Shown here in pieces: positions 2,142 to 63,100 of a DNA stretch of 64,000 nt. Origin of the DNA: Geosiphon pyriformis uo1 (taxonomy: Eukaryota; Fungi; Glomeromycota); contig JAAOMT010000227.1 in the NCBI GenBank assembly GCA_016748015.1, positions 183,239-247,238 on the forward strand. The letters are read 5' to 3'. A program made the translations under genes and the position numbers. How positions within the stretch are numbered: the first letter of the stretch is position 1; each line of letters opens with the position of its first letter. The notes below the pieces were generated by a model, which worked only from the letters and a program-made list of their open reading frames with translations, did not search any database and was not told where the DNA came from.

Positions 2142-2143
2142 TT

Positions 2144-2160
2144 TGGTGTTTTCTATGAGG
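2144..2160 (+). promoter_or_regulatory. tRNA primer-binding site of element A
   Basis: TGGTGTTTTCTATGAGG 2 nt after the LTR; a decayed version of B's TGGTGCTCCCTGTGAGA. Confidence 0.8.
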
Positions 2161-11078: not shown

Positions 11079-11102
11079 ACAAATAAAAGAATATAAAAAG
11101 AC

Positions 11103-11760: not shown

Positions 11761-11774
11761 AAAGAAGAGAATAA
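11761..11774 (+). promoter_or_regulatory. Polypurine tract of A
   Basis: AAAGAAGAGAATAA immediately before the 3' LTR. Confidence 0.8.
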
Positions 11775-31634: not shown

Positions 31635-32503
31635 TGTTACTCATAGAAATATAGGAAATATATTAACATAATTATTAGCCAATCAGAAGTAAGCATAGTA
31701 AAGGTAAAATTCCAGGATTTCTCTCAGGAATTGCAGAATTTCAGGAATTTCAGAATTCCCCAATGAGGAATTACAAGATTCCAGAATTCCAGGATTTCTC
31801 TTAAAGGAATCACAGGATTCCAAGAATTCCAGGATTTCTGTTGTGAAAAATTGAGGAATTGAGGAATTCCAATTATGTATATATAGTGGTAGTATTAGAA
31901 ACAGAAAAGACAGAATCGATACCACAGAATCCTTAGCCAAGAAACAAAATCATCAAATAAATAATTATTCCATATTTCAATCCACTCTTCACTATCAACA
32001 CTTTATGTTGATAGTAATTAATACTTAACCACACTGGAACAATAGCTCTTAATCATGACTATTGACGGAATATTAATCTGCCAAACTGCCTGGGCTTATT
32101 TCTTTTTTTTCTTTATTTTTTTTTATTTCTTCTCTTTATTTTTATTTGTTTTGATTGTTGTGTATACTAATTGATTAAAAAATTGAGCACTGAGTTATTG
32201 ACATCAAGGATAGCCTGGTAAAAGACCCAGAAATAAGGATAGAATTTTATATATTATTGGATAGCTTACCAGAAGGGCACGACTGCCAGACTAAATCTGG
32301 CCACCACGCTGAGAAAAAAATTGGAAAAACTCTTGGAAAGATATATCTACTATCAACACTATTGAATCTCTGTTCATTATACAAAAGACTCTATCAAAAT
32401 CTTCAGATACAACACTTTCAGAACATCATCAACAAAAGTAGCTTTTGAGCACCAAGTTATGGGTTGTTATTTACTTCAACAGCAGAAATAATCCCCTGTA
32501 ACA
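31635..32503 (+). repeat. 5' LTR of element B
   Basis: Direct repeat of 40927-41795. Confidence 0.96.
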
Positions 32504-32505
32504 TT

Positions 32506-32522
32506 TGGTGCTCCCTGTGAGA
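32506..32522 (+). promoter_or_regulatory. tRNA primer-binding site of B
   Basis: TGGTGCTCCCTGTGAGA 2 nt after the LTR. Confidence 0.85.
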
Positions 32523-32565: not shown

Positions 32566-35500
32566 GTGGCAGAATCAGAAATTATAGAAGCAAATCATTT
32601 AAGATTCACAAAATCCTTATTTCAATACTATTGTCAATACTTGGGATTAAACCACAATCATATATCTGCCGAATCAGTCTTCAATTTCTACGTCAACAAA
32701 AAGATTTCCTCTTTATTAAGAACACCAATGAATACTGAATCAGCAAAAGAAACTTTCTATAAGGAATTAATTCAAAACACCAACCTACTAACAAATCATA
32801 ATTTCACATCTATCATCACTAAGATTAACAAAGAAATTGAACATCACACTCAACAAAGATATTCAATTACATACATTAGTAAAGGCAAGGGAAAATTACA
32901 AACACCAGCAGTAACACCCAGAAAAATACAGCCACCTGCTTAGAAGAAAAACAGAGTTGAATCCCCAAGCAACTCATCCTACTACTATACACCTGGAAGT
33001 GCCATCAACATATCATCAACAGATGTGTTTCCATCAACTGAGACATCAGCATTTGGATAATTCCCATTCCAAAGTAGACAAAGGAAAACAGAATTGTTAG
33101 GACTATACGGCAAATACTTTGAGGGATTTAATTCGCAATTATCAATCTCATCAGGACTTCGATCATCACTGCCTTCACTAGATTTTGGAATCTCTGATCC
33201 ATGGGAAGCAGCAGAATCAGAAAAGAAGGAAGAAGAATCAGAAGATCAAGAATTCACTTACCAGCATCTGATCACTGAAAACCCGGAAGTTGAAACCCCA
33301 AACATTCAAACTCAGCAACATTTAGAAAATCCAAAAATCAAAACTCCAAATATTCGAATGCTGCCAAATCAAAGAAATCAAAACTCCGAATTAATTAATC
33401 AGCAAAACTTACCTCCGGTAATTTTCATCAATCAACTGCCAATTAATCCCATAGCCGAACCCATACAGCAGCCACTTCAGCTACCACCTCAACAACCAGG
33501 ACAACAACAACTGCTTCAACAGCCACCACAACCACCTAACTTAGATCCAATGGCCTACACACCAATCGCAAAACTTGACAACTTTACGGGCAAAGAAGAT
33601 GATGCTCAAGTATGACTGAATGATGTAGAAAAGGCCATCACAGCCAATGGATGGAATAACGCTCGAGCAATGCAAGCATTCCCTACTTTCTCAAAGATAC
33701 TGCCAATTCATAGTACCAAAGCTTGATTAATAAACCACAAGATTTTAATGCCTTCAAAGCAGAATTCCTAAGATACTTTAGCAACAATAACAGCATCAAT
33801 CACCTAGTCAATGTATTCACCAATATAAAACAAGGAGAAACTAAAGCAGTCACCACTTACCTGGGATGCTTCCATCAAAACCTATGCCAAATTCAAGCAA
33901 TTGACACCAACTATTTCACAGCACCACAGATACTTAATCAGTTTATCTGTGGTCTGCACAGCAGCATCTTGTAACATGTATGTCTGTTGCATCCAGGTAC
34001 TTTTCAAGATGCAGTTACATGTGCCAGAGATTTTGAATCCACTTAGTCAGAAGCTAACCACACCCAAGCTGTTAATCTAGTAATGAACAGATTATCTGAA
34101 CTGGATTCCAAATTGGAGAAGTTCAGTGAATCAATTAATAAGAGATTGGAAGAATACTTAGCTGACAATCATGCCATTTATCAGTCTCCACAATGATGCA
34201 ATAATCAAGGGAACTCTAATCATGCCCAAACTCAAACATGTTCATCTGCATTAACTAATCAATAGTGACAACAGGAAACACGTATCTGCCACTATTGTGA
34301 TAAACAAAGGCATATCCAAATTGACTGTTGCCAGCATTTAAATAACCAATGATCGGGAAATCAATATTGAAACCCCGATTGCCAGTTCCAAACTCCGAAT
34401 CATTATCCAAATCAAGGTCAAGACCAATATCAAAATAATTACCTGCCAATGATGCAGCAACCAATCTATCAACCACCAGTATATCAACCTTCGATTTATC
34501 AGCCGCAGCCACAAGTAATATATCAACCACAGCCACAAATCATCTATCAACCCCAACCAATTCAAACACCACCCCAGAACCCAGCTTAAATAACATCAGA
34601 CAACCTTTGATCCAGAGTCACTCAAAACTGGAGATCGGCGATGGTTGTTTACCAACTGATTCCCAGTTCGCTAAACCCACCATCAGGATCACACACCCAG
34701 AATTTGGATACCAGTCACATTCAAAACCCAAATTCCCAACACTATTTAAGTCTCCTGGTTAATCCAGAAGACACCACATCCAACAACACGGAATTTAATC
34801 AGCACATACCTACCAACACAATTCTACTGGCAACCATCTCTAGTGACAAATGCCTAGCAGCCATCTTTCCTTTCAAATTCAAAGAAAACACACTGATACT
34901 GTTATTCAGTAGAGCCGCTCTTGAAGAGAAACCCATAACAGCAATGTACATGGATGCCAGAGTTGATGGTCACCCCATCAAACTCATCTTAGATAGTGGA
35001 TCAGCTGACAGCATAATCACAAGACAGCTCATGAATCAATTAGGTCGCCGAGTTGATTGAGCTGCCAACACTAGAATCATCACTGCTGATGGCACCACAA
35101 AAACATCTATCAGCGAGATAGATGATTTCCCTATAGAAATTAACGGCATCATAGTACTAATCAAAGTCCTAGTAATGGACGCCACCTAATACCAAGCCCT
35201 AGTCAGTAATGACTGGCTGTCCAAAACCAATGCCGTGCTCAATTGGATGACCCAAGAATTAATACTCAGCCAGAATAAAAGACACACATGAGTACCAGCA
35301 ATGTGTGGCCACTTCAAGGCTACTAACAACACAGCACCACTAATCGACTTCGACGAGAAGAAACTGAAGCCAACTTGAGAAGCCTACCAAGTATCATAGG
35401 CTGATGAAGAGCACAATAAGCTGTCGCCAATACTCTTCTGGGACGACAACAACAAGGGAAAAAGGAAACAAAAGGAAGAACTTACTTGGGAAACCGATGA

Positions 35501-38500
35501 TCTGACATGGACTGACAATGATGAGAGCAAACTGACTTCAAGCTGGGAATGGAAAGAAGACAAAGAAAATAAAGAGAAAGGAAAAGGAAAAGAGACCACC
35601 CAAACCACCACTGCTTATAACACCTACACCATACCACAATGATCTACCTATCATTGACCTAAGCTGATATGTGTCAATTGTGACAAGAAATTGTTGTCAA
35701 TGGGTGTATGCTGTAGGAACAATGAGGAATATTTAATGACAATTAGGTTCTATTGCCACCCATGTGTCCTTGAATGCTTTGGAAGACCAAAACAAGTAGG
35801 AAAATGGGACAACCAGCCATGCTTAGCTTGTGGAGAGACTCTCTTGGACAAAAAAATGTGGCATGACATTCCTGGACATGGAGAAATGTGCGACGTAGAG
35901 TGTCAATACATGATTCTGATCAGCAACTGAATTAAAAAGAGAACACCAATTGAAACTGCTTGGCAAAGAGTAGTGCAACAATTAGACAGTTGTCCACATG
36001 ATGACGACAAAATTTGGAGAATGGCAACTGCCAAAATTGAAGGTGTGTTGCCAGAAGAAATCCAGACAATTAAAAACAACCCACCAGAATCCATCGAGCT
36101 TGACTGAGACGCAGAGCCAGTCATAAATTTTCTGGAACCAGAAGAGTTCTATGAACACTACCAAAACTTGGCACCCACTAGAGAAGAGCAAGAACAATGG
36201 CTAGCACAGTTAAATACAAGACTGTATCACCATTGTTTAATTTCCAGTGACTTTGAATATTGTGACAATTGTGACCTCATTTACAATCCACCACCACACA
36301 TGATCTACTTAATTCCTGAAAAAGAAGAACCAATCAGCAGCTGTGCATCGGAATTAGAATCACTGATCAATTGTGATTCAGACTCCGACGATAATGATGA
36401 AAACACCGGTTCTAGCTTCATTCAAAATGGCAATGATGACAAAAACAATTCAGACTCAGATTCAAACCCCACTTTAAACTATGAACAATACATTGCACTA
36501 CCAGATCTCTTCAAGGAACAAGAGTTGAAATAGTATAGTGACAATGGAAAAGGTATTATGCCAGAATGTGTGCATGATACTAATGCAGGGTTTGATCTGA
36601 GGTATCCAGGAAAAGAAACCATCAAATTGGAGCCACATTCACGCATCTGCATTGATCTGAAAATAGCACTAGAAATTTCAGCAACAACAATAGTTCAATT
36701 AGCATCTAGGAGTAGTTTAGCAAAAAGAGGGATTAATATAAGAAAAGGAATAATTGATGCGGGATATGTAGGAAATATCATCGCGATATTACAAAATGAC
36801 TCAGAAAAGGCCTATATAACAGAACTCAATGAAAAGATAGCACAGACAATATTCCTGCCTCTGGTTAGAATAGCTCAGTTAGTATCAGTGAGAAAGAGGG
36901 AGGAATTAGGAATAACAGTGAGAGGAATACAGAGATTTGGATCAATGGGTAGAATAGATGTACCAGTTAATATGGCAGAGGAAAAAATTGTTGGCCAAGG
37001 AGAAATTATCTCAACCAGTCAAGCTATTCCCATTCCACCATATAGCCAGTACATGCTAACAATAGGAAGGAAAAAAAAGAAGCAAGGACAAATTTTTGAA
37101 GCTGAAGCAAATCTTTGTGCATCAGGAAAGATTGGGTTGATTAATCTCCACATACTAGCCAAAGGCTATAGCAGCATAAAAATTCTCATCTACAACAATA
37201 CTGGCAATGTCATCAACATACCAGAAGGAACCACCATCAGATATTTAACCACAGAAATAGAAGACCAACTACCAAACCTCATTCTAGACTTTCCACAACT
37301 TTGTGGATATGTTGACATCACATTACAAACAATCTATAGACGAGACAAATGTTATTTGCTCCAACCAAAACAATTGGAACAAATGAACATGGGAAACTTA
37401 GATCTACTCTAATGTATGCAGCTCAAGATGTTACTCAACAATTTCAACAACATCTTTGCCAGTGAAAATGAGTTTGGCCAAACTGACATCATCCAGCATT
37501 AGATCAAGACTGGAGATGCAATGCCAATCAAACAAAGAGCATACAGAGTGCCACCAGCCAGCCACAAGATCATTTGTCAAGAGATAAACAGAATGCTTAA
37601 CAACAGGCTAATTCAACTATCAATGAGCCCATGGTCATCACCAGTGGTATTCATCCATAAGAAAAATGGAAAAATCTGGTTTTGTGTAAACTACAGGAAA
37701 CTCAATGGTGTAACTCATGGAGACAGTTATCCAATTCCATGAATACAGGAATTATTTGATGCTTTCAGTGAGAACAAATGGTTCTCAACATTAGATTTGG
37801 ACAGTGGTTACTGACAAGTAGCCATGAATCCAGCTGACAAAGAGAAGACGGCATTTACTACTAGAGAAGAGAATTTCGAATTTGAAGTGATGTCATTTGG
37901 CTTAACCAATGCCCCAGCAACTTTTCAATGGTTAATGGAAATCATTTACACTGGCTTATTGTGGAAATCAGTAGTTGTATACTTGGATGACACCAATGTA
38001 TTCTCAAAGACATTTGATGATCATCTTCATCATCTTCAACAAGTGTTCAAAAGACTAAGAAAAGCAAGACTAAAGTTAAATACAACAAAGTGCTTCTTCA
38101 GCAAGACAGAACTAAAATTCTTGAGACACATAGTCAGCAAAGATGGCATCAAAACGGATCCAGAGAAAATAAAGATAGTAAAGAACTTTCCAGTGCTGAC
38201 CAATATGACAGAACTGAAATCATTCTTGGGATTTATCAGCTACTATTGATGTTTTATCAAGAATTTTTCCAAGATAGTGCAGTCACTCAACCAACTGCAA
38301 AACAAAGATACAAAATATGAATGGACTGAAAGTCAACAAGAAGCTTTTGATATTCTAAAAAGAAAGCTTATACAAGCTCCAATACTGATTTATTCAAATC
38401 ACAGCAAACCATTCATCATCACCACAGATGCATCCGGCCAGGCATTAGGAACAGTACTATCTCAGAGAGGACCAGACGGCAGAAAACATCCAGTGGCATA

Positions 38501-38783
38501 TGCCAGCAGAGGTTTAACACTGGCTGAAAAGAACTATGGAACACTGCAAAAAGAACACTTAGCAATATACTGGTCAGTCATAAAATGGAAAGAATATTTG
38601 AGCCAGAAGTTTGAAGTGTACACAGATTACAAAAGATTAACATTACTTCAAAAACAAGAATTTGGAAATGGAAGACAGTCAAGATGGAAAATGTCACTTG
38701 CATCATATAAGTATACTATACATTATAAAAAAGGAAAAGACAATGAAAATGTGAACAGTTTATCGTGAATAAAACAAATCTAA
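32566..38783 (+). pseudogene. Gag-zinc knuckle-protease-Cys-rich-dUTPase-RT-RNase H polyprotein of B
   Basis: One reading frame apart from a 1-nt deletion near 33678; CHYCDKQRHIQIDC knuckle, LILDSGSADSII protease, VYLDDT RT, TTDASG RNase H; ends KQI-TAA. Confidence 0.93.
36558..36950 (+). pseudogene. dut: dUTPase domain within the B polyprotein
   Basis: All five trimeric dUTPase motifs: AGFDL, SRSSLA, GIIDAGYVG, KIAQ, RGIQRFGSMG. Confidence 0.92.
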
Positions 38784-38846
38784 GAACATTTCAACCCAAA
38801 AATATAACAAAACCAGAACAATACCAACAGAAAAATACAACAAAAG

Positions 38847-40229
38847 ATGAACATACAAAAATATTAACAATTGCAACATTATTTAAACACTCAACAGTTC
38901 AAGGAGAATTTATCTCAAACAGAACGAAAGAGTATCAAACAACAATCAAAATATATTATTACTCACCAAAATATACTTTATTAGAAAAATAAAAGGGATC
39001 CAAATCAACCAACCAGAGTAATTACAGAGCCAGAAAAAGAGACAATATTATTCAACATGCACTCAAATCCAACAGCAGGACATTTTCACAAAGAAACAAC
39101 CATGGAAAGAACTAGAAAGAGATACTATTGGCCATCAATGTACCCAGATATTATTCAATATGTTCAAAATTGTGATGCTTGTCAGCGAAGAGGAGAAACA
39201 AAACCCAGTGAACCATTAAGACCAATCAAAGTGGGACAACCATTTGACCATATTGGAATTGATTTAGTCGGACCATTAACAATTACCAGCAGAGGAAACA
39301 GATACATAGCAGTAGCCATGGACTATCTCACTAAATGGCCAAAGACGAAAGCAATTCAAAGAGTGGATGCAGAATCCATTGCTAAATTCATTCATCAGGA
39401 TTTGATTTGTCGACATAGATGTCTAAAAGAATTATTATCAGACCAAGGAACTTATTTTGTGAACAAAACATTAACAGAATTGAGCCAAAGATTCGGAATC
39501 AAGAGACTATTATCATTATCATACCATCCACAAATCAATGGATTAGTAGAAAGATTCAATAAAACACTGTGTGAAGCAATAGCTAAGCTCAGCCAAGAAA
39601 ACCAGAACAATTGGGATTTGTTTATACCATCAGTACTATTTGCTTATTAGACAATGAAACAAGATACTACACAAGCAACACCATTTGAATTAGTATATGG
39701 AAGAACAGCAATGTTACCAGTAGAGAGAGAAATTAATACATATCCAGTTGAACCAATAACAGAAGAGAATTTCAAAGATACATTGTTGAAAAAAACATAT
39801 GACTTAATGGAAACATTGGAAAACAACTAAAGAAGAGCAGCTGATAATATTCAAAAGTCACAAGAAAAACAGAAAAAAAGACACAATAATCAACTACCAG
39901 ACAAACCAGTTGAATTCAAGATTGGAGACAAAGTATTACTACATCGTACCAAAGCGGAAAAACAATGGAGTGGAAAATTTGACCCCAAATGGGACGGACC
40001 ATTTCACATAAAAGAAATTCTAGGAAATGGAGCTTACAAATTAAGACTGGATAACAAAATTTTAACCAAAGCAGCACATGGAGATTAACTGAAGCCATAT
40101 TATGACATTACACTACTATCTACCAGTAATATTCCACAATTAGGAGTACAGAGAATACTAGTCCGACCAGATGAGATTCCACGAGATCTAGAACCAATTG
40201 TTATTATCAACAACAACACGTTAAATTAA
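38847..40229 (+). pseudogene. Integrase ORF of element B (460 codons, own ATG)
   Basis: MNIQKY start; H-x5-GH...CDAC zinc finger; IGIDLVGP, LSDQG and NGLVERFN (DDE); WDGPFHI GPY/F module; no chromodomain seen. Confidence 0.9.
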
Positions 40230-40262: not shown

Positions 40263-40913
40263 ATGACAGAAAATATCAGAAAAATGGAAATTACAGACAA
40301 CATTCACACACTAGCACAACAACTCTTTCAATTAATCCAACACCAGGAAATGGAGATTACAATCAATCAACAAACCATTCGATATCAAAATACTAGAAAG
40401 ACATTGCAACTCAGAACACCAAAGAAAACTGAAAATACAGTAGACAAAATCATGGCAAAAGTAAAATTAGCAATAAAAGAATTGACAAAAGAGTCACTAT
40501 ATTAAGAGTTGACTAATAAAACTTGGAATTGGTGGATACAACAATTTCTATGAAACTATTGTTATTTTTACTTGGGACAACACATAAATATCCAGAATCT
40601 ATATACAGATAAAACAAAGCAATTATTCGACAAAAGAATACTACAACAATTAGAACATTTTGTGGGAAAAAACAACTTATCTACACAAGCCTGAGCCATA
40701 TACTGAATACACACCGCATTTCAGAATAAACCAGAAATATTGCTCAACAGAGCAATAGATATGGTTACCAGTAATCAATTGGGAAAAATCACCAATGCTC
40801 AATTTGAAGAATTACAGACCCAAATAACACAAGTAATTCTTGAAAACGAAATCCAGGAAATACTTTAAAAAGAGGAATTACATGAGTTGGATTTCGACAG
40901 AGCTCAATATTAA
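40263..40913 (+). pseudogene. ORF3 of unknown function, element B (about 216 aa)
   Basis: Single frame with point stops; homologous in A, C and D; ends DFDRAQY* at the PPT. Confidence 0.75.
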
Positions 40914-40926
40914 AAGAAGAGAATAA
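40912..40926 (+). promoter_or_regulatory. Polypurine tract of B
   Basis: AAAAGAAGAGAATAA before the 3' LTR. Confidence 0.8.
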
Positions 40927-41795
40927 TGTTACTCATAGAAATATAGGAAATATATTAGCATAATTATTAGCCAATCAGAAGTAAACATAGTAAAAGTGGA
41001 ATTCTAGGATTCCTCTCAGAAATTGCAGGATTCCAGAAATTTCAGAATTCCCCGATGAGGAATTGCAGGATTCCAGAATTCCAGGATTTCTTTCAAAGGA
41101 ATCGCAAGATTCCAGGAATTCCAGGATTCCTGTCATGAAGAATCGAAGAATTGAGGAATCTCAATTATGTATATATAATGGTAGTATTAGAAACAGAAAA
41201 AACAGAATCGATACCACAGAATCCTTAGCCAAGAAACAAAATCATTAAATAAATAATTATTCTATATCTCAATCCACTTTCCACTATCAACACTTTATGT
41301 TAATAGTAATTGATACTTAACCATACTGGAACAATAGCTCTTGATCATGGCTATTGACAGAATACTAATCTGCCAAACTGTCAGTACTTATTTTTTTTTT
41401 TTCTTTATTTTCTTTTATTTCTTCTCTTTATTTTTATTTGTTTTGATTGTTGTGTATACTAATTGATTAAAAGATTGAGCACTGAGTTATTGACATCAAG
41501 AATAGCCTGATAAAAGACCCAGAAATAAGGGTAGGATTTTATATATTATCGGATAGCTTACTAGAAGGGCACGACTACCAGACTAAATCTGGCCACCATG
41601 CTGAGAAAGAAATTGGAAAAACTCTTGGAAAGATATATCTACTATTGACACTATTGAATCTCTGTCCATTATACAAAGAACTCCATCAAAACCTTCAGAT
41701 ACAACACCTTCAGAACATCATCAACGGAAGTAGCTTTTGAGTACCAAGTTACAGGTTATTATTTACTTCAACAGCAGAAATAATTCTCTGTAACA
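40927..41795 (+). repeat. 3' LTR of element B
   Basis: Direct repeat of 31635-32503, followed by TSD CCAG. Confidence 0.96.
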
Positions 41796-47493: not shown

Positions 47494-48144
47494 TGTTATA
47501 ATTAAAACTCATAGTTTTTATTAGTAACAATATATATTAGTCACTAATATTATATAATTAGCCATTTTATTTTTAAATAATAATTATTGACTTGATCATT
47601 GACCATTTTTAATAGCTATATAAGTAATAAGTTTTTTAAATATAGAAAAACATATAACAATAAATATAACAATTAATTAAGAATAAATAAAATAACAACT
47701 ATTATTTTAATTCTTCTCTTATTACTTATTCTTTTTTTTTTATCTTCAAGTATATAAACATCTTAAAATAAAAAATTACTTGTTAGTATTTATCTACTTT
47801 TTTTCTGACTTATATAATTGTAGTATTTGAAAATTATTGAATAAAATATAACTAAAAAGTATATTTAATATCTGATATCAAATTTTAAGAATGCCAATAT
47901 AAAACATAGAATTATATTAGTGTGTTATTATTTGTTAATAATATGAACTATTCTTCTATCTTCAAATTTTTCAGTTATTTTTTAAAAAAAATAACAACTA
48001 AAATATTTTATGAGACTGATCTTACATATTAAATCTATACTCATTCAATTTGCTTCTTGAAATTGAATCCTCTTTGATTAATTTTATCATCCTACAATTT
48101 TGTTTTTTTTACTATCTATTGGCTTATTATTCCAGTTTGTAACA
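47494..48144 (+). repeat. 5' LTR of element C
   Basis: TGTTATA...TGTAACA; direct repeat of 54439-55087. Confidence 0.9.
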
Positions 48145-48259
48145 TAAAAGTAGTGTTTTCTGTAAGATTGTTAAATATTAATTTGTTTTTTATTGTATAA
48201 GTAATTATTCATACTTGTTATAATAATCAAAAGAATATTTTGCAGTACACAACAAAAAT

Positions 48260-51200
48260 GACTTAAATTTTATTGAAATCAATTCTTTGTTCTCTTGCTT
48301 GATCTGTTTTTCTGTTAAAAAACAATCTAGTAGACAATTCTAAAATTTTTGGAATTGGTTTCTAAACAAACATTCAGCTAAAACTTATACTGTCTATACA
48401 ATCTGTTTTTTTGATCAAGCTTACTTTGAAGAAGCCTTTAAAGAAAAAAATAACAATATCAATCAGCTTTTATATTCAACAATCTTTAAATAACAACTCT
48501 CTGATTTTGAATATTTGAATTACTAAATTTACATCTGGATTGCTACTTATCAGTTAGCTAAAACTCCCTTTAAAACAAAAGAAGAAAGTTATTAAACTGC
48601 TTTTATTTTTGATTTTTTTTAAGTAAATAAAACTCTTTTATTTAAATAGCTACTCTTGAATCAATAGCTGTTAACTCCATATAAGCAAACATTCTGGCTG
48701 TTCTTCAAAATTTACAAATTGCTTTAGGGTGAAAAAACAATACTCTATTATTATTATTTAAAACAATACACAAAATTCAATTAAATAGTTGAATAACTTT
48801 AAGAAAGCTATTACAACCAACCAATATAATGATAAGTACAAGTTTTAAATCATTGGTGGCTATTTTCAAGGTTCTTTTATTATCTGGTTTTTACAAAAAA
48901 CTGATGCTAATATCTTTTAAAAAATTATTAGATGAACACTAACCAATACTAAAGAAACAAATATTTCTTTTATTATCCAGTTTGAAACCAAATTTAGAAT
49001 TCCAATCTTAATATTCAAATAGCATATAGAACTATAAAAAAAAACTCAAGATCCTAGTAAAGTTGTAATTAAATATGCCAAAACAATTAGAAAATTAATT
49101 AAATAAGTAGATTTTAAAAAAAACTAAACAAAAAGCAAAAGATTTATTTTTTTACAAAAAAATTGAAAACTGATTTTTTATATGCTCTTTGGTTTTTTTT
49201 GGTCTTGATAAATAATCTCACAATAGATATAACCATTAAGCTTGCACAAAAAATTAAAGACAATCAAAAAATACACTTAGGATTTACACTTTTAGTTTTC
49301 ACTTCTGCTCTTATTTTGGCTTCTGTTTTTTAAATAACTGCTATTTTTTTCACTGTCCAAATCCAAAATTCTAATAAACAATTAATAGATAGACTTACAG
49401 CCAATCTTGCTTAATTATTGGAACTCTTAGCCCAAGCAGTTAAAAAAAATTAACAACTTTAAAGATCTAGATTTGAATTCTGTTTTAATTAACCTTAGCA
49501 ACCACTTTATCAAAAACAGCAAAATTGTGGCCCACTTTTATGTTATTACTATAGACTAATTGAATATTTTTCAAAAAATTACAATGATTCTTCCTTGCAT
49601 TCTTCAGTTTCTAAAAACAATAAAACTCAAAACAACAAACTCAACAACAATAATGTCTCTAATTAAAGATTTAATTAGACCAACATCAATTTTTTTAAAA
49701 AGAATTTCTTAGTTAAAGCCACTATTTATTAGCTTTTAAACTAGTAAGTACACTTCAAAAGAGTAAAAATATAAGCCAATCAGAAGAAAACCTCTTTTAT
49801 GTCTTTAACTTAATTAATAATAATCATAATATAAATAAACTGACTATTAACTTCTTTAACTTAACAAAAAAAAATAAAGATTGATTTTGTCTTAGATTTT
49901 AATAAAGCTTTCATATTAACTGTTAATAATAATAAACTACCAAAAGCAAAAATTTTCAAAAATTTTTCAAAGCTAAGACTTTCAGAAATTGTACAAAAAT
50001 CTGGTTCCTATTTTGTTGTCAAAAATTTTATAGAAACACCAGTTTATATTATCTTTGGCCAGTTAATAACCCATCTGCAGTTCAGAAAAAATCTTTGCAA
50101 ATCCTTAATCTTAAAAAAAAAACACCAAAAACCAACAAATGTTTTCATCAAGCTAGATTTGTTAACAACAGCAATGCTATATCCCTAATTTACAAAGCCC
50201 AAGTGGCTGAATATTTTATTGACTTGATTCTAGACAGTAGATTATTTGTTAGTGTTATTGCCAAACACTTTCTTGAAATTATTGGCAAAAAGATAAATGA
50301 ATTTTTAACCAAATCTATAACTAATATACATGGTAACAAAAAAAGACTTGGTATTACTAATGCTGTTTCTGTTTGCATTAATAACATTAGCATTAAAACT
50401 AATATAGAAGTATCTGAAACAAAAAAATACACTATAATTGTTGGTAATAAATGGCTTAAAAAAGCAAAAGCTTTGCTTGATTATAAATTTTATAAACTAA
50501 TTATTAGATATAATAAAAAACTTATTATAGTTAAGTATTACTATTGGACAATTTCTTTAATACCCAAGCAGAACCAAAAAAAAAATAATTAGATAAATTA
50601 GATGATAAAAAAAGCAATGAAAAAAAAAAATAAAAAGAACAAAAAAAAGCTACTAAACTCACTTATACTACTTTTACCAGCAATGACAAGTTACTAAATA
50701 ATATTAAAACTGACAAAAAAAATATTATTGTAAATAGCAAACTAATTTGTTAGTCTTATTATAACATGTTTAGAAAAATTTTTGACAGAAAGTTTGATAA
50801 GAAAGCCAAATACAATTATTGGTAATATGGTCCTTGCATTCAGTATTGGTGTGACAAACCCTTGTATTCTTTTAGCAATAAATTTATATCCTGTCTAATC
50901 TATTACAAAGATTAGAAATTTATTAACTTGATACTTAGAAAAAAAAATAAAAAAAGTACAGAAGTCTTTTGAAAATAAATTACTATAAATACAGTTACTA
51001 ATAGTAGAACAAAAAAACTCTCTTTTAAAGAAAAAAAAATTGATATTAAAAATCTGCTGGCTAAAAACAGCTTAGTTATTTTAAAAGAAAGTAATACTCC
51101 TAAACATATCCATATAATAAAACATATTATTACCATTAGAAAAACTCACATTATTCATTTAACGTCTTATTAATCTAATTACTACAATAATAAATTCATC

Positions 51201-52395
51201 AAAAAAGAAATAAACCAAATAAAAAATCTTAGATTTATACAAAAAACCAAAAGTAAATAGGCATTTCCAGTTATAGTAGTATTTAAAAAAAATAAAACTT
51301 TATGTTTTTGTATTGATTACTAATAACTAAATGCCATTATTGAAAGAGACATGTACTTATTTTCCAAAATTGATGGAATGTTAAATCAATTCAATAGTGC
51401 TGCTTTCTTTTTAATTATTGATTTAATTATTGGATTTTGACAAGTAAAAATAGATCCAAAAAGTCGAAAAAAAACTGTCTTTATCACCAAGTATAACATT
51501 TATAAATTTACAGTTATGCTTTTTGGTCTTACCAATATTTGATGGACAAAATATTCAAATCAGTAAAAGAAAAATTTGTTTTAGTTTACTTGGACAATAT
51601 AATAGTATACTCAAAAACCTAAGATAAACATCTTAAACACTTGCAAAAAGTTTTTGATCTTTTTAAAAATACTAGTCTTAAGATTAATTCAATCAAGTCT
51701 TTTTTTAGATGACAATTTTCACAGTTTTTTAATTATCTTATTACAAAAAATAAAATCTTTTTTAATCCAGCCAAGATTAAAAAAGTTCAGAATATTAAGC
51801 AATTAATGAATGTTTATAAATTATACTTTTTTTTTGGTTTGGCCTTTTATTATTGCAAATTTGTTAAAGATTTCTCCAAAATTGCTTTTTTTTTTAATTA
51901 GCTATTTAAGAAAAATATCAATTATTACTAAGATATATATTAACAAAAAGCATTTAAAATTTTAAAGAAAAAATTAGTTACAAATCTTATTCTTATACTA
52001 CCTAATCTGGATCAATCTTTTATCTTTTATACTGATATATTCAGCTATAAATTTGGTGCTGTTCTTTTACAGAAAGATAAAAATAACAAGAAACATGTGA
52101 TAACATATGCCAGTAAAACACTTTTACTTGCAGAACAAACTATTTAATTATTAAACAGAAATGTTTAGCAGTAGTTTGGGCTACCAGTTACTAGGATAAA
52201 TATCTTTTTGGTGTAAAATTTTTAATAATAATAGATTATCAAGCTTTGGTTTGACTATACAACAAAAAAAAACTGGAACACAAAAAAATAACTTACTAAA
52301 TACTCCATTTAGATAAATTCAACTACAATATATAACATCATAAAAAAGCTAATTATTAAAACACTAATGTTTTTTTTAGACTTACCATTCAATAA
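48260..52395 (+). pseudogene. Gag-PR-RT-RNase H of element C (start approximate)
   Basis: Protease LILDSRLFVSVI, RT (FCIDY, MLFGLTN, VYLDNI), RNase H (LYTDIF); ends RLTIQ-TAA-TAG. Confidence 0.75.
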
Positions 52396-52460
52396 TAGTA
52401 CAAATTTTTCAGATTAAACCAACTTAATTATTAGTAATTTCTTCTTAAACAAACACAATA

Positions 52461-53755
52461 ATAGACTTGGACAACTATTTTATATTAATAGAATATTTGG
52501 GTAAAAAACAATACCTATTAGATTACACTTAACAGCAAAAAAGAAATTTGTGCAAACAATCAAATTTCTATTTGATTTGCCAAAACCAACTTTACAAAAA
52601 AAATAGAAAAGATTCTAATCACTTCCAAAAAGTCATCAGATTTGAAGAAAAAGAAATTGTAATTTATAATATATATACTAATCTATTAGCTAGACACTTT
52701 GAAAAAACAAAAACAATTCAGAAAATCTTAGCTTACTATAATTGGCCTACTTTGGAAAAAAGCATTGTTGAATATATTAAAATTTGTAATACCTACCAAA
52801 GAAGAAGAAAATCCAATTACAAAAAAAATATCTATTCAATTTTTGTTAGTTAATTATTTAACAGAATTGGTATAGATGTTGTTAAATCTTTAACAATAAT
52901 TCTTGATAATAACAGATATATTATTACAACTATTGACTATTTTACAAAGTGTGTAAAAACAAAAACTACTCCTAATTAAATAGCAGTTTCTATTGCCAAT
53001 TTCATTTATGAAGATATAATTTGTTATCATAACTGTTTTAAAAAATTTTTATCTGACAGAAAAAGAGCTTTTTTTAGTAAACTGGTTGAAAAACTTTGTA
53101 GAAAAATAAAAATACATTATAAACTCTCTTTCTCTTATCACTTTTAGACAAATGACTTAATAGAATGTTTTAATAAAACTTTATGTAAAATTTTAACCAA
53201 AACCACTAAAGAAACAAACTTATAAAACAAAGTACTGTCTTTAACTTTATTTGCTTATAGAACTGTGAATTATAACATAACAAATTATAAATCCTTTTAT
53301 TTATTCTATGAATGAATAACAACTTTACTAATAAAAACCAATATTAAGACAATATTTTTTAAAAAAATAACAATAAAAGATTACAAAGACATTTTGCAAA
53401 GAAGACTTGGTACTATTCTTAACTCCTTGATAAAAGTACAAATAATTGTCTTTGAAAAAATAAAACAGTTCCAAAAAAAGCTTAAGAAGAAAAAAATTTA
53501 TAAAATACTTTTCTTAAGTATTGGTAACTTAATTTTGAAATATTGCTTAAACAGAGATAATATCTATGGTAATAAATTTTCTAATTGGTAAAAAAAATCT
53601 TTTTTAATCAACAAAGTTTTGAAAAATAGTTCATATATTTTACAAGATCAATATAGAACAATCTTTAATAATTGCTTTGTTTATGATACATAATTCAAGA
53701 AATATTACAAATAACTTAATTTATTTGTTATAATAATATTGATCCAAATAATTAG
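52461..53755 (+). pseudogene. Integrase ORF of element C
   Basis: (ATG>ATA)DLDNYFILIEYL start, out of frame with RNase H; RIGIDVV, IDYFTK and LSDR motifs. Confidence 0.7.
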
Positions 53756-53775
53756 CAAAAATTAGATATAAATAA

Positions 53776-54429
53776 ATGCACTATTTTCAAAACAGAGGTA
53801 TTTTTAATTAACATGAACAACTGTTTTCTGGATTAAAACATTCAAAACACTTTCTATACTCTTCATAAGTATTGGATCAAAAATTATCCAAATACTATTT
53901 TGACTATTAGAAAACAAATCATCATAACTAATAACAATAAAATACATATTGTCATTAAACCAAAAAAAACCACTACCAGAAAGAAAAAAATTGATAATAA
54001 AATGGATAAGTATCTGTGAAAAAGTATAACAACAGTAATACTTACATCTTTTATCACAATTAAAAAAATAATTAAAAAAATTTTGCCTATAAACAAAAAC
54101 TTGTCATATAGAAAACAACTAAAATTCTATAACCATCTTGGTAAAATCATAGAAAATATAAAGTTTATAAAGAAAACAACTTTAGAAATACAAATAGAAA
54201 TTTTGAACATTATATAATTAGATATCTCAAGAATTTTATTTATTATAAAAAAAGCCAAAACTCTTATACAAAAATTTAGTCTTTTGAATACAAAGCTTAT
54301 TTTATTTCAAGTACTATATATTCTATTCACAAAAGACTTCAACAAACTAATTAATTTTGAGTTAGATAAAGTCTTTTAAATAGAATATTCTATAAATAAT
54401 TTAATTTTGTCAGAGTTCAATCTTTTTGA
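53776..54429 (+). pseudogene. ORF3 of element C (decayed)
   Basis: Lies between IN and the PPT; FYNHLGK and terminal NFVRVQSF* resemble ORF3 of A/B/D. Confidence 0.5.
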
Positions 54430-54438
54430 AAAAGATAA

Positions 54439-55087
54439 TATTATAGTTAAAACTTATAGTTTTTACTAGTAACAACATATATTAGCCACTAATATTATAT
54501 AATTAGCCATCTTATTTTTAGATAGTGATTATTAATCTAATTATTAACTACTTTAAATAGCTATATAAGTAATGAATCTTTTAGATATAAAAAAGCATAT
54601 AGCAATAAATGTAGCAATTAATCAAAAATAAATAAAATAACAACTATTATCTTAATTTTTTTTTATTGCTTATTTTTTTTTCTTACTTTTAAGTATCTGA
54701 ATATCTTGAGATAAAAAATTACTTGTTGGCATTTACCTACCTTTTTTCTGACTCATATAATTATAGCATTTAAAAATTATTGAATAAAATGTGACTAAAG
54801 AATACATCTAATATCTAATATTAAATTCTAAAAGTGTCAACATAAGGCATAAAACTATACTAGTGTGTTATTATTTGTTAACAATATAGACTATTTTTCT
54901 ACTTTTAGATTTTTCAATTATCTTTTAAAAAAAATAGCAACTAAGATATTTTATAAGACTAATTTTGTATATTAAATTTATACTTATTTAATTTATTTTT
55001 TAAAATTAAATCTCTTTAATTAATTCTATTATCTTACAATTTTGTTTTCTTTTGCTATTTGTTAACTTGTTATTTCAATTTATAATA
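54439..55087 (+). repeat. 3' LTR of element C
   Basis: Direct repeat of 47494-48144, followed by TSD CTAT. Confidence 0.9.
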
Positions 55088-56923: not shown

Positions 56924-57887
56924 TATTACCAAAGGTTTTTGGTCTCTTTTCTTGAATGCTGTTAATGTTTGTTTGTTGCTAATTTCACATTTTCTGAAAG
57001 CAGTTAAACCTCCAATAACTAATTTATTTTCAAATTATCTTCTATAATTTGAACTGCTGGGCTTATAAATAAAATAACCAATTTTATGCCAGTTGTTTTG
57101 TGTAGTTATGTTGTAGTAAACGTCAACTTTTTCCCAAGAATTGCTTGTCTGAAAGCTCATTAAAATTGTGTAGTTACTTTACTGTGAAAGTCAACTCTTC
57201 TACAAAAATCTGGTCTGTAGGCTATCCTAATGATTATAATAAGAAAAATATAAAAAAATATAAAAAATATAAAATTTTATTAAGGGAAACGTTTTCTATT
57301 CAGGCTTGGAGTTACTAACAGATTACTGAAATTAGTAGTTAATCAATTTCAAAATGTTAGTTGTGTTGAGAAAATTTCAAGTGTAATAATTTAAAGGATT
57401 TGGTTTTCAATTATTTAATTTTTATTTGAAATATGTGAAAAGTAATTTGTTCTAATTAAAATATTTAAAGTAAGATACTATAGTAAGATATTATAAGAAG
57501 ATACATTTTTTTGAAGAGAAAAGTTCTTCTTTTATACAACTTGTTGTAGTACTAGTCTTTGAACTTGTACTTTTTTCTTTGCTATAATTTGGGTAAATTA
57601 AAGATACATTTCGGTAAATTACAAGTTATTTCACTGAACTATTAATTATTTCGGCCAATTTTCATTAATTTCGGCAAATTTTGACTATATTAAATGGTTT
57701 AGAGTATTGTATAATTTAATTATCTTAATTTTTATTGTACAAATCAAATTATTGATTAAGTAATAATATTTAATAATTTGATTAAATAATAAGTGATAAT
57801 CAAAATGATAATAATATATGCTAGTTAATAATAAGAATTATGAGAGTAATTTTATGCTAATTAATAACTAAAATTTTATTGGTAACA
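56924..57887 (-). repeat. 3' LTR of element D (964 bp)
   Basis: Starts TGTTACC right after the PPT; homologous to the solo LTR at 12978-13972. Confidence 0.88.
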
Positions 57888-57898
57888 TAATCTCCTCC

Positions 57899-58575
57899 TC
57901 AAGACTGAGCTCTATTGAAGTCCAAGTACTATTTATAATGTCAAAATAATGGTCCAATATAATTGAAGTAATTTGGTCTGAAAATTGTTGAAATTTCAGT
58001 TCTGTGAGCTTTCCAATGTATTGAATCTTCATTGGCTGAAGTATTAGATTTTGTAAGATATTTTCACAAGTATTGAATAAATTATAGAGTCTAAATGCTG
58101 CTCTAAGTTTGTAGCAAGTGTTTGTTGGTCCAGCTGCTGTCTTGAATTTATTGTGAATTTGTTTTTGAGTAACTTCAAAAATAATGTGTATTGCTTTAAG
58201 TTTCAGTTTTTGATCATAAAATGTTTTTCCAATATGAAAATATTTATAGATAAAGGTATGTTTATTGTTTTGTTCATTAAGAAATAATAGAAGTTTTTGT
58301 TAAATTGTGGCATTTGGTGAAATGTCAATAGGGGCAAATAAAAGGTTTTCTTTTAGTGCTTGCTTTAAAAGTTTTGGTAATTGAATTTCAGAATAACCTC
58401 TTGTTTTTTTTCTATAGGGGTAATAATTCTGAGAATTATTTACTATTGGGGCTGTGGTTTTTTTCTAAATATAATTAATTTGACTTTTATTAATCGTTAT
58501 GGATAAGTCAAGAAGTGTTTTTAAGGCTAACATTAATTTTTGGGATATTTGTTAAATATTTTAAGGAATAATCAT
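57899..58575 (-). pseudogene. ORF3 of element D
   Basis: MIIP...SITINK...YFHIGK...AFRLYNLF...IGKLTELKFQ...DFNRAQS*; aligns in outline with ORF3 of B. Confidence 0.7.
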
Positions 58576-58750
58576 GATAAAATAACTAATTAATAAGTAA
58601 ATTTAAAAAGAATAAAAAAAATTATTTTATAGAGTTTTTATTTGTTTTTGGATTTAAATGTTTTTTGTAATTATTTATTATTTTTGTTTTATGTTTTGTG
58701 TATTTAAAAGAGTTTTTTGTAAAAATATTAAATTAATTGTTCAAGTTTGG

Positions 58751-60115
58751 TTATTGTTCTATTATAACTATTGGTTCTAAATTTCGAAGAACATCTTTAG
58801 GATTAATTAAAAAGAAATATGTACTAATTTGTGGAATTAATAATTCAGAATTGTTTCTGAAATGATAGTGTTTCAATCTATTTTCATGTACAACTTTTGC
58901 CAATACTTTGTTATCAAGTCTTAACTTATATAATTCATTGTCTAGAATTTCGTGAATATAAAATAGTCCATCCCATTTATGTTCAAATTTTCTACTCTAT
59001 TGTTTTTTAGCCTTAGTTCTGTATAAGAGAACTTTATTTCCAATTTTAAATTTGTTAGTGACTAGTAGTTTGTTGTCATGTCTTTCTTTTTGTTGAGCTT
59101 GAAAGTGTTTAATATAAGTTACTGCTATCTGTCTTTTTTTTTTCAGTGTATTAAGAAAAGTATAGACTCTTTTTTAAAGTGTTTCTTGAAAATTTTTTTC
59201 ATTGATTGGTTGTACTAAGTATGTTTTTACTGTGAAGTTAATTGGTAGTATTACTGTCTTTCCATAAGTAAGATCAAATAGTGTGTGCTTTATAGTATCT
59301 TGTTTTAGTGTTTTATATACTAGTAACACTAATGAAATAAAGATATCTCATTTCTGCTCAAAATCTGTTGAGACTTTGGCTAAAAATTTACATAATGTTT
59401 TGTTGAAATGTTCTACAAGTCTATTTGTTTAAGGGTGATAAGGTAATAATAGAGGTCTTTTGACATTGAATCGTTCACAAATTTCTTGTATCAAGTTGTT
59501 TACAAAATGTGTTTCTTGATTAGATAAGAGTTTAATTGGGCATCTATGTCTACAAATAATGTTTTTATAGATGAAATTTACTACTGATTTTACATCTGTT
59601 TTTTGGATAGCTCTAGTTTTAAGCCATTTGGTAAGATAATCTACTGCAACTGCAATATAACAATTTCCTTGGGTTGTGATAGGTAATGGTCCAACTAAAT
59701 CAATTCCAACTCTGTTAAAAAGTTGTTCAACTTTGATTGGATTTAAAAGTTCTGTGGAGCATATTTTTTCTCTTCTTTGACAACTATCACAAGATTCTAC
59801 ATATTGTCGAATGTTTTTTTGCATGTGAGGCCAAAAATAATATTCAAGTATTCTTTAAATTGTTCTATCTCTTCCCAAATGTGCTGAAAAAAGATCTGTG
59901 TGCATGTTGTATAAGATTGTTTTTTTATTATTTTTTTGTATTAATCTGAGTGGTTGGTTTGGGTTTTTGCAATTTTTGTAATAAATTTTGTTGTGGTGTA
60001 TAAAATATTGTTTGAATTGTTTTTGTAATCGATGTTTTTCACTTGGAGACCAATTTTTTGGTATGATAAGAGTCTTCAAATAGTTTTTAAGATTGTTGTA
60101 ATTTCTGGGATCCAT
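58751..60115 (-). pseudogene. Integrase ORF of element D (own ATG)
   Basis: MDPRNYNNLKNYL start, out of frame with RNase H; CDSC, VGIDLVGP and GPY/F tail. Confidence 0.88.
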
Positions 60116-60171
60116 TGTTGTTTTGTTATTTGTTGGTAGGTTGGTAAGTTGTAGTAGATTTGTTGGTGTTA

Positions 60172-63100
60172 TTAATCTTGTCTTATTCTTGAGAGGCTAT
60201 TAACATTGGTGTGTAATTTTCTTGGTTTGTGGTATACAATATATTTGTAATCTGCTAGGAAATTATTCCATCAAGACTGTTTGGCACTTTGTTTAGTTTT
60301 CTTCTTATTAAGCCATTTGAGACCAATATTATCAGTTATGATGTTAAATTCTTTTCCATTCTTCAAATATTGTTGAAAATGTTTAAGAGCCCAAATGACT
60401 GTAGCAGCTTCTAATTCAGTTGAGCCATATTTGAGTTCTGTTGACTTGAGTGTTCTATTGGCATAGACAATGACTTGTTCCTGGCTATTTTCATCTAATT
60501 GTGATAGGATGGCACCAAATGCTATATGTGAAGCATCAATAGCTAGTTGAAATCGTTTGTTGAAATCTGAATAAGCAAGAACTGGGACTGTTGTTAATTT
60601 TGTTTTAAGGATTTTAAAAGCTTTTTGTTGTTCTTCAGTCTATTGGTATAACATATTTTTGTTAGTAAGATAGTTGAGTGGTTTGGCAATTTCTGAGAAT
60701 TCTTTTATGAATTTTTGATAATAGGAGGCTAATCTTACAAATTCTTATAGTTCTGTGGTATTTCTGGGTGTTTAAAAGTTTTTGACAGCATTAATTGTTC
60801 CAGGATTTGGTTTGATTCTATCTTTGCTAACAATGTGTCTAAGAAAAATTAAACTTGTTTTTCCAAAGTAACATTTCTTAATATTCAACTTTAATCTTGC
60901 TTTTTGTAATCATTGAAAAACTTTTCACAGGTGAATAAGATGAGCTTTAAAGTTTGGTGAATACACATTAGTGTCATCAAGATAAACAACTACTGATTGC
61001 CACAAAAGTCTTTCATATACAACATCTATGAGTTATTGAAATGTTGCTGGTGCATTGTAAAATTCAAAAGACATAACATTAAATTCATAGTTTTCTTCTT
61101 GAGTAGTAAATGCTGTTTTGGGTCTATCTTTTGGGTCTATTTCGACTTGCCAGTATTCACTTTCCAAGTCTAAAGTTGAAAAGAACTTGGCTTTTCCTAG
61201 AGCATCCAGCATGTCATTAATTCTTGAAAGAGGATAAGCATTTCCAATTGTCACACTGTTGAGCTGACAATAATCTACACAGAATTTGATTTTTCCATTT
61301 TTCTTTTTAACAAAAACTATTGGTGAGGCCCAAGGACTTCTTAATAGTTGAATCAATCTATTATTGAGCATTTTCTGCACTTTTTCTCTGATAAATTGGT
61401 GGCTAACAGATAGAATTTGATAGGCTTGTTGTTATTTTGGTGAAGCATCTCCTGTGTGGATTTGATGTTAAACAATATCAGTTTTTCCAAGGTCATTGTT
61501 GTCTTTTGCAAATATATCTGCAAATTCAGCTATCAGTTGTTTCAATTGTTTTTGTTGTTGGAATTCTAAAAGACCCATATTGATTTGAGAAAGTTTTTTT
61601 TCCAACAGGTAATAGTTTTCAGTAGTAGAGGTGATGTTTGAATTTGGGAGTAGAGTATGTCTTATAATTTCGATGAAATTAGAGACAATTTGAGAGTTTT
61701 CATCTTGGAAGATATTGCTGTGTATGATTTCAATCTCTAATTTATTCAATAAGACAATAGAATAATTATTGGGGTTGTAGAATATAACTCAAAATTTTTT
61801 CATTTTTTTGGGAATATAAATATTTGAGATTGAGATTTCATACTTTAAACAGATTTGTTTATTGGATTCAAAGATTTGTTGAATATTGGTGGGTTTTGAG
61901 CAAGTGTAAATTTCGTGATGTTCTTCAAAAAGTAAAATGATAATTGGTTGGGGAAGTTGAAGAATCTGGTAAGATTCATTTTGTGCATTGATAGCTATAT
62001 TTACTGGCACTGTAAATTATCTAGTTAAACCAAAACTTTGAGTTCTTCTTTCACTTTTTCCCAATTGTTCTCTGTTGTTTACTGATTGTAAACCCAAAAT
62101 GTTAATTAAGAGTAGGTAAATTGCTTGGGCAATCTTTTCAGCATATTCAATCCTGAATAGTTTGTTTGTTTTATTCTGTAATATAATGATAATGTCTTCA
62201 GTATATCTTGCATTTATAACTCCTCCTTTAACATTAATTTTTTTGCTTGCCAATGATGATCGAGAAGCAATTTGTACCATTGCTCTTGGTGGTATTTCCA
62301 AAACAATTTTGAGATTGATTTTGGTTAAGAATTTTGGTTGAAGAACCAAAGTATCTTTGCCAAGATATCTTAGGTCATATTCTGCATCAATTTTGTGAGC
62401 TTTTTTTGGTTTTATTTCTTTTCCATTGTTGTTAAAGTATTTGAGTTGTATAGCAAGCTAGTTTTCAGTAAGATAGATTGGTGTGGTTGCAATTTTTTCT
62501 TTTGTTTTTGGTTTTCCAAATTCAATTTCTTTCTGGTCATTTTCACTAAGTAAGGAGATGCTAAGAGCATAGCATTCTGAACACTATTTGTTATCACAAG
62601 ACATGATGTATTCTTCACACAATTGAATGTTCATTTGCTCTAATCATTGAATTTAAGCTTCTTGGGTTGGATATGTGTGGCTTGCAATTTGGTAGTATGT
62701 CTCTACCTTATCTTCATAGTTGAATCCAGCTAATTCTATTGTATATTTAATATATTCAGCTTCTTTCATTTGGTGGACATCTTCTTGGGTAGCTCTATTG
62801 ATTAATGTCATTGCTAAGTCAAAAATTATTTTTGCATCATGAAGATAGTGGTAGAGTTTGTTGAGAGCACTGTTGTATGCTGCATCAAAAGATGTTCCTT
62901 ATTTAACTTTTTTCGAAATTGATAGAGCATATTAACAGGTTTAGTCACATATTTTTTCTCTTATTGCAACATCAATCCAGTTGTATTCTTCTGGTAGCAT
63001 ATCTCCACATGTGAAGCAAGAAGTGTTATCCCATTTTCCACTTCTTTTTGGAGATCCAAATCATTTTTTATAGCATGCTTTGTAAAAGTAGCAGATGCAA

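Follow-up and report, generated by a model that had tools for sequence, protein, structure and literature searches.

The window, by which we mean the whole analysed stretch of 64,000 nucleotides, contains four decayed Ty3/Gypsy retrotransposons (A to D; Table 1), in each of which the frame that ends with RNase H (RH) is closed by a stop and the integrase (IN) follows after a spacer. A and B, members of one family, are full LTR elements. Their termini read TGTTA...TAACA, and both have a site resembling a primer-binding site (PBS), a polypurine tract (PPT) and 4-bp target duplications. In B, Pfam places dUTPase, reverse transcriptase (RT) and RNase H 5' of the stop and Integrase_H2C2, rve and SH3 3' of it. 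A Cys-rich X region separates protease (PR) and dUTPase in B and A, and the one ORF scanned from it had no Pfam match. Several other repeats are present. A Tc1/mariner-type DDE_3 transposon remnant interrupts A, and B sits within the minus-strand member of two related LINE-like remnants, both with weak endonuclease matches. An extra Gag fragment resembling A and B lies 3' of C, and the window also holds inverted LTR-like remnants and a 1-kb repeat that is probably a solo LTR of family D.

Table 1 Features of the window and of selected related loci (locus:position)
Feature	Position	Strand	Remarks
Element A, same family as B	1288..12627	+	LTRs 1288-2141 and 11775-12627; target duplication ATAG
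Tc1/mariner-type DDE_3 remnant	~6221-7561	-	within A
A junction	9691..9726	+	stop 9691, 30-nt spacer, ATG 9724
A integrase end	~11078
A ORF3 start	~11103
1-kb repeat	12987-13989		related to 56907-57878
LINE-like remnant	16900-21700	+
Inverted LTR-like remnants	27072-27758		near 27 kb
LINE-like remnant	30100-31630 and 41800-45150	-	surrounds B
B target duplication	31631-31634 and 41796-41799		CCAG
B 5' LTR	31635..32503	+	TGTTA...TAACA ends, 91.6% identity with 3' LTR
B PBS-like stretch (TGGTGC...)	32505..32522	+	candidate PBS, 3' of 5' LTR
B Gag-PR-X-dUTPase-RT-RNase H frame	33560..38783	+	decayed; 5' limit approximate
B protease	~34920-35300
B X region	35600-36500		Cys-rich; also in A
B dUTPase	36558-36923
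B RT	37653-38123
B RNase H	38322-38708
B stop	38781-38783
B RH-IN spacer	38784..38846	+	63 nt, 60% A, no ATG
B stand-alone integrase ORF	38847..40229	+	460 codons, 5 decay stops; N-terminal extension, HHCC, DDE core, GPF/SH3
B ORF3	40263..40913	+	begins 33 nt past IN stop
B polypurine tract	40912..40926	+
B 3' LTR	40927..41795	+
Low-GC region	46000-56000		GC down to 15-23%
Element C	47496..55085	+	strongly decayed; LTRs 47496-48142 and 54441-55085
C junction	52393, 52461		stop 52393; IN frame from ATA 52461, out of frame
Extra Gag fragment	55505-56881		3' of C
Element D	57850..64000	-	continues beyond window edge; PR-dUTPase-RT-RH present
D junction	60174, 60115	-	stop 60174; ATG 60115, out of frame
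D integrase end	~58800
D ORF3 remnant	58272-57880
TGA-CTA sites	L006:2882, L022:870, L035:3290, L040:902, L056:3358, L072:1585		end of Gag-protease
37-nt motif, example	L017:4464-4500
Pol tail with Cys/His domain, example	L010:4750-5163
NUDIX hydrolase ORF	L016:1945-2889		after integrase
Two unannotated ORFs	L058:2945-5367		197 and 608 aa, after integrase
RH-IN spacer of L056	L056:6703-7435		727 nt, with repeated CTCTCGAAAG

All four junctions lie where the original prediction had placed them. RNase H ends in RQI-TAA in A and in KQI-TAA in B, and the integrase follows in frame after 30 and 63 nt, respectively. In C, TIQ-TAA is succeeded by TAG, and an ATA heads the integrase N-terminus 65 nt from the first stop, out of frame; in D, on the minus strand, RQD-TAA and a further TAA are followed after 56 nt by an ATG that is also out of frame. 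ATG is absent from all four spacers, and those of A and D are without any G.

The window copies are all dead, with stops making up about 1% of codons (in B, 6 of 749 codons in dUTPase-RT-RH and 5 of 460 in the integrase). In the 5' part of the A and B integrases, one of the two copies has TAA at 3 of 20 CAA positions. The earlier argument that decay is an unlikely cause of the stops holds for C and D, where indels would be needed as well, and is weaker for A and B, which belong to one family and have the integrase in frame, so that decay could mimic their layout. Since the copies are heavily C>T decayed, the window alone is suggestive and not decisive, and the proof rests on intact relatives. 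As for the decay itself, 82 of 86, 71 of 73 and 104 of 106 differences within three window LTR pairs are transitions; this share of 95-98%, spread over CpA, CpT and CpC, points to strong C>T hypermutation beyond CpG.

Integrase as a separate gene in related elements

Relatives were collected by a metagenome scan with integrase-core patterns, which is blind to fusion, and the best 80 of 544 loci were kept. Both an RNase H end and an integrase are present in 38 of these best 80, and the contigs of the other 42 have no RNase H. None of the 38 junctions is fused, in keeping with the prediction that throughout the lineage the integrase ORF stands alone and has a separate start codon, and the uninterrupted RH-IN frame that had been named as a refutation was not seen in any of them. 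The distance from stop to ATG ranges from -20 to +727 nt and includes nine overlaps (-20 to -1, one of them TAATG), one junction at +2, 21 at 24-97 nt and seven at 158-727 nt; distances in L014 and L031 were adjusted for a premature stop within the Pol tail, and the ATG was placed manually or as the first Met in L023, L029, L043 and L053. All three reading frames of the integrase relative to Pol occur (10, 16 and 12 junctions). Spacer and frame thus vary, whereas the integrase Met is conserved among relatives at about 45-50% protein identity, which is the pattern that had been proposed as a check. Some contigs are intact across the entire coding region, such as L010 with three open ORFs of 1612, 424 and 143 aa. 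We conclude that the Gag-protease-RT-RNase H frame almost certainly ends at a stop and that a gene of its own, located downstream and starting at a conserved ATG, encodes the whole integrase.

Protein searches from both sides of the junction gave the same picture. Among the 120 listed of 5614 long proteins matching the RT-RNase H of B, integrase domains are absent from all 17 with at least 48% identity, of which 12 end 1-30 aa past the RNase H end motif, two have long tails and three end at or just past a variant or incomplete motif, as judged from the protein records. At 47% identity, integrase is present in three of the seven listed proteins. A few fused relatives fall within or beside the split group (P0125, P0144 and P0192), and P0125 is a true fusion. 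The integrase of B matched 963 proteins of 253-805 aa, and the 120 listed are 392-453 aa long with 43-51% identity; in 99 of these the initial Met lies 69-80 residues before the first zinc His, and most others begin at a Met about 17 residues later. Because a search confined to 253-805 aa cannot reveal fused forms, longer proteins were searched as well (120 listed of 1214), and few of those listed score like the split-integrase family. In viral contigs a single distant locus was found. The structure predicted for one stand-alone homologue (pLDDT 82.5) aligns with the whole PFV and Ty3 integrases over 421-434 columns (E about 1e-22 to 1e-23), so that the beginning of the ORF coincides with that of the enzyme. 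The ORF thus encodes a whole Ty3/foamy-type integrase with a complete predicted fold from Met1.

It is very improbable that splicing, frameshifting or readthrough restores a canonical Pol-IN fusion. The NCBI gene models P0123 and P0124 connect RNase H with integrase, but both delete the conserved RNase H end motif; P0126, an R. irregularis gene model with unverified exon structure, also continues from RNase H into integrase. An in-frame RH-IN splice, the other proposed refutation, was sought on the DNA as GT-AG introns of at least 45 nt that join RNase H in frame to integrase with both ends kept (L052 was unscored). Of the 27 short-tail junctions, 24 admit no such intron, whereas one can be drawn in 9 of 10 long-tail junctions, where chance is expected to supply such pairs across hundreds of bases. 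Restored fusion is also at odds with the occurrence of all three frames before an invariant Met, and the 10 in-frame junctions have no common leaky stop context. That the split arose from CAA>TAA substitutions together with indels in inactive copies, or from assembly errors, is extremely improbable despite the very high C>T/G>A load of the window, and is refuted by the identical break in intact relatives of 28-51% GC whose other ORFs are open; R. irregularis moreover has multi-copy integrase proteins of 407-430 aa. The split is a real, lineage-wide Ty3/Gypsy variant.

The predicted order of Gag-PR-X-dUTPase-RT-RH, integrase and ORF3 was recovered in intact relatives, with the qualification that ORF3 was detected 3' of the integrase in 20 of 31 loci with sufficient 3' sequence and that dUTPase and X are family-specific (L062 has a dUTPase, as do the window copies). 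The tricistronic arrangement is common, not universal. The ORF3 start sometimes overlaps or abuts the integrase stop. ORF3 is a conserved family in many members, with 535 clusters, and most of the 150 listed are about 140 aa long and stand alone; the ORF3 of B is likely a distant member of it (HHalign probability 54%, E 1.3e-4). No Pfam family is common to at least two of 103 members and no solved sequence matched, and an Atlas search gave feature matches of 0.93-0.94 with fewer than 150 shared features and no common family. The predicted fold is all-helical (pLDDT 95.5) and had no clear match in Foldseek searches (PDB and viral; VIA best Z 5.1), which is not evidence of a new fold. After the integrase, L016 carries a NUDIX hydrolase ORF and L058 two unannotated ORFs.

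Translation of the integrase and an RNA motif before its start

In one branch a further stop interrupts the upstream frame. An in-frame TGA followed by CTA ends Gag-protease in six of six loci, and RT goes on in frame; two other in-frame stops (L029 and L031) have contexts that differ from TGA-CTA. UGA CUA G is known to give high readthrough, as described in the accessible part of PMC12233894, and TGA-CTA is likely a site of programmed readthrough after Gag-protease, judged by its sequence. This readthrough-type stop is new here for these elements. Loci of the readthrough branch with sufficient 3' sequence have no ORF3 match beside the integrase, and ORF3 is therefore probably unnecessary for the split.

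We give slightly better than even chances to termination-coupled reinitiation, by which ribosomes terminating at the Pol stop would restart at the integrase ATG on the genomic RNA; ORF3 would probably be reached by a second reinitiation, and branches may differ in mechanism. The integrase ATG has a purine at -3, a strong start context, in 34 of 38 junctions. Spacers of up to 170 nt contain eight ATGs, against 21.6 expected in base shuffles (reached in 0 of 2000) and 15.7 in dinucleotide shuffles (2 of 500). With four near-duplicate junctions removed, spacers of 24-97 nt hold four ATGs in 1168 nt, and ATG density is about 25/kb in RT-RH and 10.5/kb in the final 60 nt before the Pol stop, a dip confounded by codon usage at the conserved RNase H end motif. 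It stays at about 30/kb up to the integrase ATG in the nine non-redundant overlapping or abutting junctions, and in 8 of all 10 such junctions a further ATG lies within 40 nt upstream of the integrase ATG. Because these upstream ATGs are kept, a capped mRNA scanned from inside RNase H fits poorly, and an ATG-poor zone anchored on the stop is better explained by termination and short scanning than by an mRNA of that kind.

Other observations argue against reinitiation. Ribosomes that have translated a very long ORF normally reinitiate inefficiently. The spacers of L022, L043 and L056, which measure 365-727 nt, carry 7-12 ATGs, which plain post-termination scanning explains badly. In the TGA-CTA elements only readthrough ribosomes would reach the RNase H stop, so that integrase output would be very low, and fused relatives exist, P0125 being nested among the split rows. 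The core of the TURBS element is UGGGA, complementary to 18S rRNA and located upstream of the stop; TGGGA is not enriched here (2 of 36, against 19 of 157 background windows). Stop and start overlap or adjoin in 10 of 38 relatives and in none of the four window copies. Such overlaps (UAAUG/AUGA) are known in viruses, and reinitiation in the SART1 retrotransposon needs RNA structure downstream of the ORF1 stop (both from the portion of PMC10275272 available), while CHV1 is a precedent in a fungus (PMC2699510, in part). The elements resemble SART1, CHV1, caliciviruses and influenza B in stop-start overlaps, including TAATG, and in RNA structure near the junction (PMC10275272, same portion). They differ from these non-LTR elements and RNA viruses in having no TURBS core and far more variable spacers.

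One branch carries a 37-nt motif that ends 0-32 nt, mostly 3 nt, upstream of the integrase ATG (L008, L010, L013, L014, L017, L018, L019, L025, L027, L031, L036, L038, L039, L042, L045, L048, L060, L061 and L065). A model from 14 loci, run on 81 loci plus the window, gave 19 strong matches and a weak one, with no locus matching more than once and every match immediately preceding the integrase start; L013, L048 and L065 matched though outside the training set, and the motif was absent from the window and most branches. In an alignment of 16 sequences made without structure, 99.4% of cells pair, and both-sided changes occur at 6 of 10 pairs, with 22 such cells against 4.8 in shuffles. Since the rows are related and the structure was derived from them, this covariation supports the putative base pairing, short of proof. 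The loop has an invariant UG..A, which we take to resemble a T-loop. Rfam searches of seven motif-bearing loci to E 5 gave two chance matches elsewhere and none on the motif, and none in the window or 12 further loci; the exact pattern was absent from the viral and prokaryotic contigs searched. The apparently covarying motif before the integrase ATG is new here. Pol of the same branch extends 200-350 aa past RNase H and has a conserved Cys/His domain without a Pfam match, found near the Pol end in 15 loci (eight of them profile seeds), 14 of which also carry the motif; in the six motif loci without the domain, upstream sequence is at most 226 nt. Both features mark one clade, so their co-occurrence does not demonstrate binding. 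The motif may help to start integrase translation, or may bind the integrase or the Cys/His domain.

A subgenomic RNA starting near the Pol stop, which might arise from an internal promoter, by splicing from the 5' LTR or through trimming by a nuclease that the structured motif brings to a stop, is a somewhat unlikely source of integrase and ORF3. It would account for the long spacers with many ATGs, suits the strong start context, and has a parallel in foamy virus, where Pol has its own spliced mRNA (PMC3705302, partial text). A/T-rich tracts upstream of the 37-nt motif would also fit; those rich in T could equally be promoter DNA, which counts against reinitiation. Against such an RNA speak the background ATG density up to the integrase ATG in overlap junctions and the tight stop-start coupling in 10 of 38 junctions, which would then serve nothing except compactness. 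Nor is there a conserved AG before the ATG, as had been noted for the window: the A and D spacers are G-free, and L008 and L042 have CGG in place of the CAG of the motif, together with a change on the paired side.

Internal ribosome entry through structured RNA in the spacer, with no need for termination upstream, is a distinctly unlikely account. It is favoured by the covarying motif that precedes the ATG by 0-32 nt in 19 loci and by short repeated elements in the 727-nt L056 spacer, but the motif is only 37 nt long and limited to one branch, most spacers are A/C-rich without a common motif, and the L056 spacer has no Rfam match and no better folding than shuffled sequences (z +1.65). Over 13 nt that spacer is identical to the 3' part of the L017 motif, and it also contains a short hairpin resembling a T-loop.

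Packaging, descent and occurrence

Polyprotein fusion is the textbook route for dosing and packaging integrase in LTR retroelements and retroviruses. A large and apparently successful lineage without it makes testable how integrase unfused to Gag or RT is delivered to cDNA, as well as how a eukaryotic ribosome restarts after a very long ORF. Free integrase would likely enter particles by binding element RNA or Gag, and integrase translated from an RNA that is being packaged could bind that RNA in cis. We infer by analogy that packaging may be bridged by RNA or Gag, as for foamy virus Pol. According to the available text of PMC3705302, foamy virus Pol is packaged without Gag fusion via genomic-RNA signals, and the integrase C-terminus is required. 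The likeness lies in an enzyme not fused to Gag, packaging through RNA signals and a need for integrase, and foamy virus integrase is also the best structural match of the predicted integrase model. However, foamy Pol is a PR-RT-IN precursor made from a spliced mRNA, and the precursor alone is packaged (same text), whereas here only integrase is split off and RT stays with Gag.

The elements are Gypsy by descent and non-canonical in layout. They share with canonical Ty3/Gypsy elements (Metaviridae) TG..CA LTRs, a PBS-like site, a PPT, a CCHC Gag, the order PR-(dUT)-RT-RH-IN and an HHCC-DDE-GPY/F integrase, and their RT and integrase are of Gypsy type by sequence, by GPY/F-SH3 and by fold. Fungal elements such as Tmt1 likewise carry a dUTPase, whose position between protease and RT is known in fungi (PMC6431247, available part). 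In canonical elements, as described in the available parts of PMC3248453 and PMC4974528, integrase lies inside the pol ORF; in the split elements it lies outside, the ORF3 family is additional, and A and B have 4-bp target duplications. In an RT tree of Gypsy rows, built with no Copia or BEL outgroup, 23 locus and window rows are excluded from a clade of 92 rows that consists of fused elements (SH-aLRT 94). The integrase tree has 33 split rows, of which 32 cluster with three fused ones; P0125 sits inside the split rows (SH-aLRT 99), the Met that P0144 retains at the homologous site hints at re-fusion, and monophyly of the split rows is neither rejected nor demonstrated (AU p 0.41).

The start Met of three Ginger1-like proteins (P0129, P0209 and P0228), which carry OTU, Ulp1 or PHD domains, aligns with the integrase Met. 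This apparent alignment of the integrase start with that of a Ginger1-like transposase is new here. As described in the portion of PMC2836005 available, Ginger1 has a YPYY region and 4-bp duplications, and its route from Gypsy is unknown. Its likeness to the split elements consists in a stand-alone Gypsy-type integrase that starts with a YPYY-type N-terminal region (matched here by eye and by profile position), in TGTNR termini and in 4-bp duplications (same portion). Unlike Ginger1, the split-integrase elements have Gag, RT and direct LTRs in place of TIRs; they have no OTU/Ulp1 tail by Pfam, and their duplications are ATAG and CCAG, compared with a CCGG/CCGT target (same portion). Ginger1-like rows lie outside the split and fused Tat-like rows in the integrase tree and adjoin them. 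The tree does not make Ginger1-like and split rows sisters, and the link is best regarded as a lead. The split lineage suggests a plausible way in which Gypsy integrase could have given rise to Ginger1 transposases, a transition called unclear in that part of PMC2836005.

Named integrase homologues come from Rhizophagus irregularis, the longer-protein search added R. clarus and Cetraspora, and a cluster look-up of 10 integrase proteins added Entrophospora and one bacterial MAG label. Since the named relatives belong there, we infer that the hosts are Glomeromycota; loci at 28-51% GC suggest a wider host range, and the lineage is likely a large one of root-symbiotic fungi. More ambitiously, an old and widespread fungal Gypsy lineage might form a polycistronic virus-like operon (Gag-protease, RT by readthrough in one branch, integrase and ORF3, each by recoding) in which a new 37-nt RNA switch, bound by the Cys/His domain at the Pol end, activates or packages free integrase, with a Met-initiated YPYY integrase of the kind of intermediate ancestral to Ginger1; this whole picture is speculative and unlikely to hold in full.

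A Gypsy element with separately encoded integrase was not found in the literature searched, and Repbase, GyDB, supplements and subscription journals may hold such families. The available parts of PMC6839031, PMC5751038, PMC6431247, PMC3248453, PMC4974528 and 10.1101/2021.03.30.436303 describe none, and the word integrase is absent from the accessible text of two papers on transposons of arbuscular mycorrhizal fungi (PMC11952901 and PMC11075540). In the R. irregularis annotation, such integrases appear as separate genes or in intron-joined models, so that mycorrhizal genomes may contain intact elements that are wrongly counted as broken.
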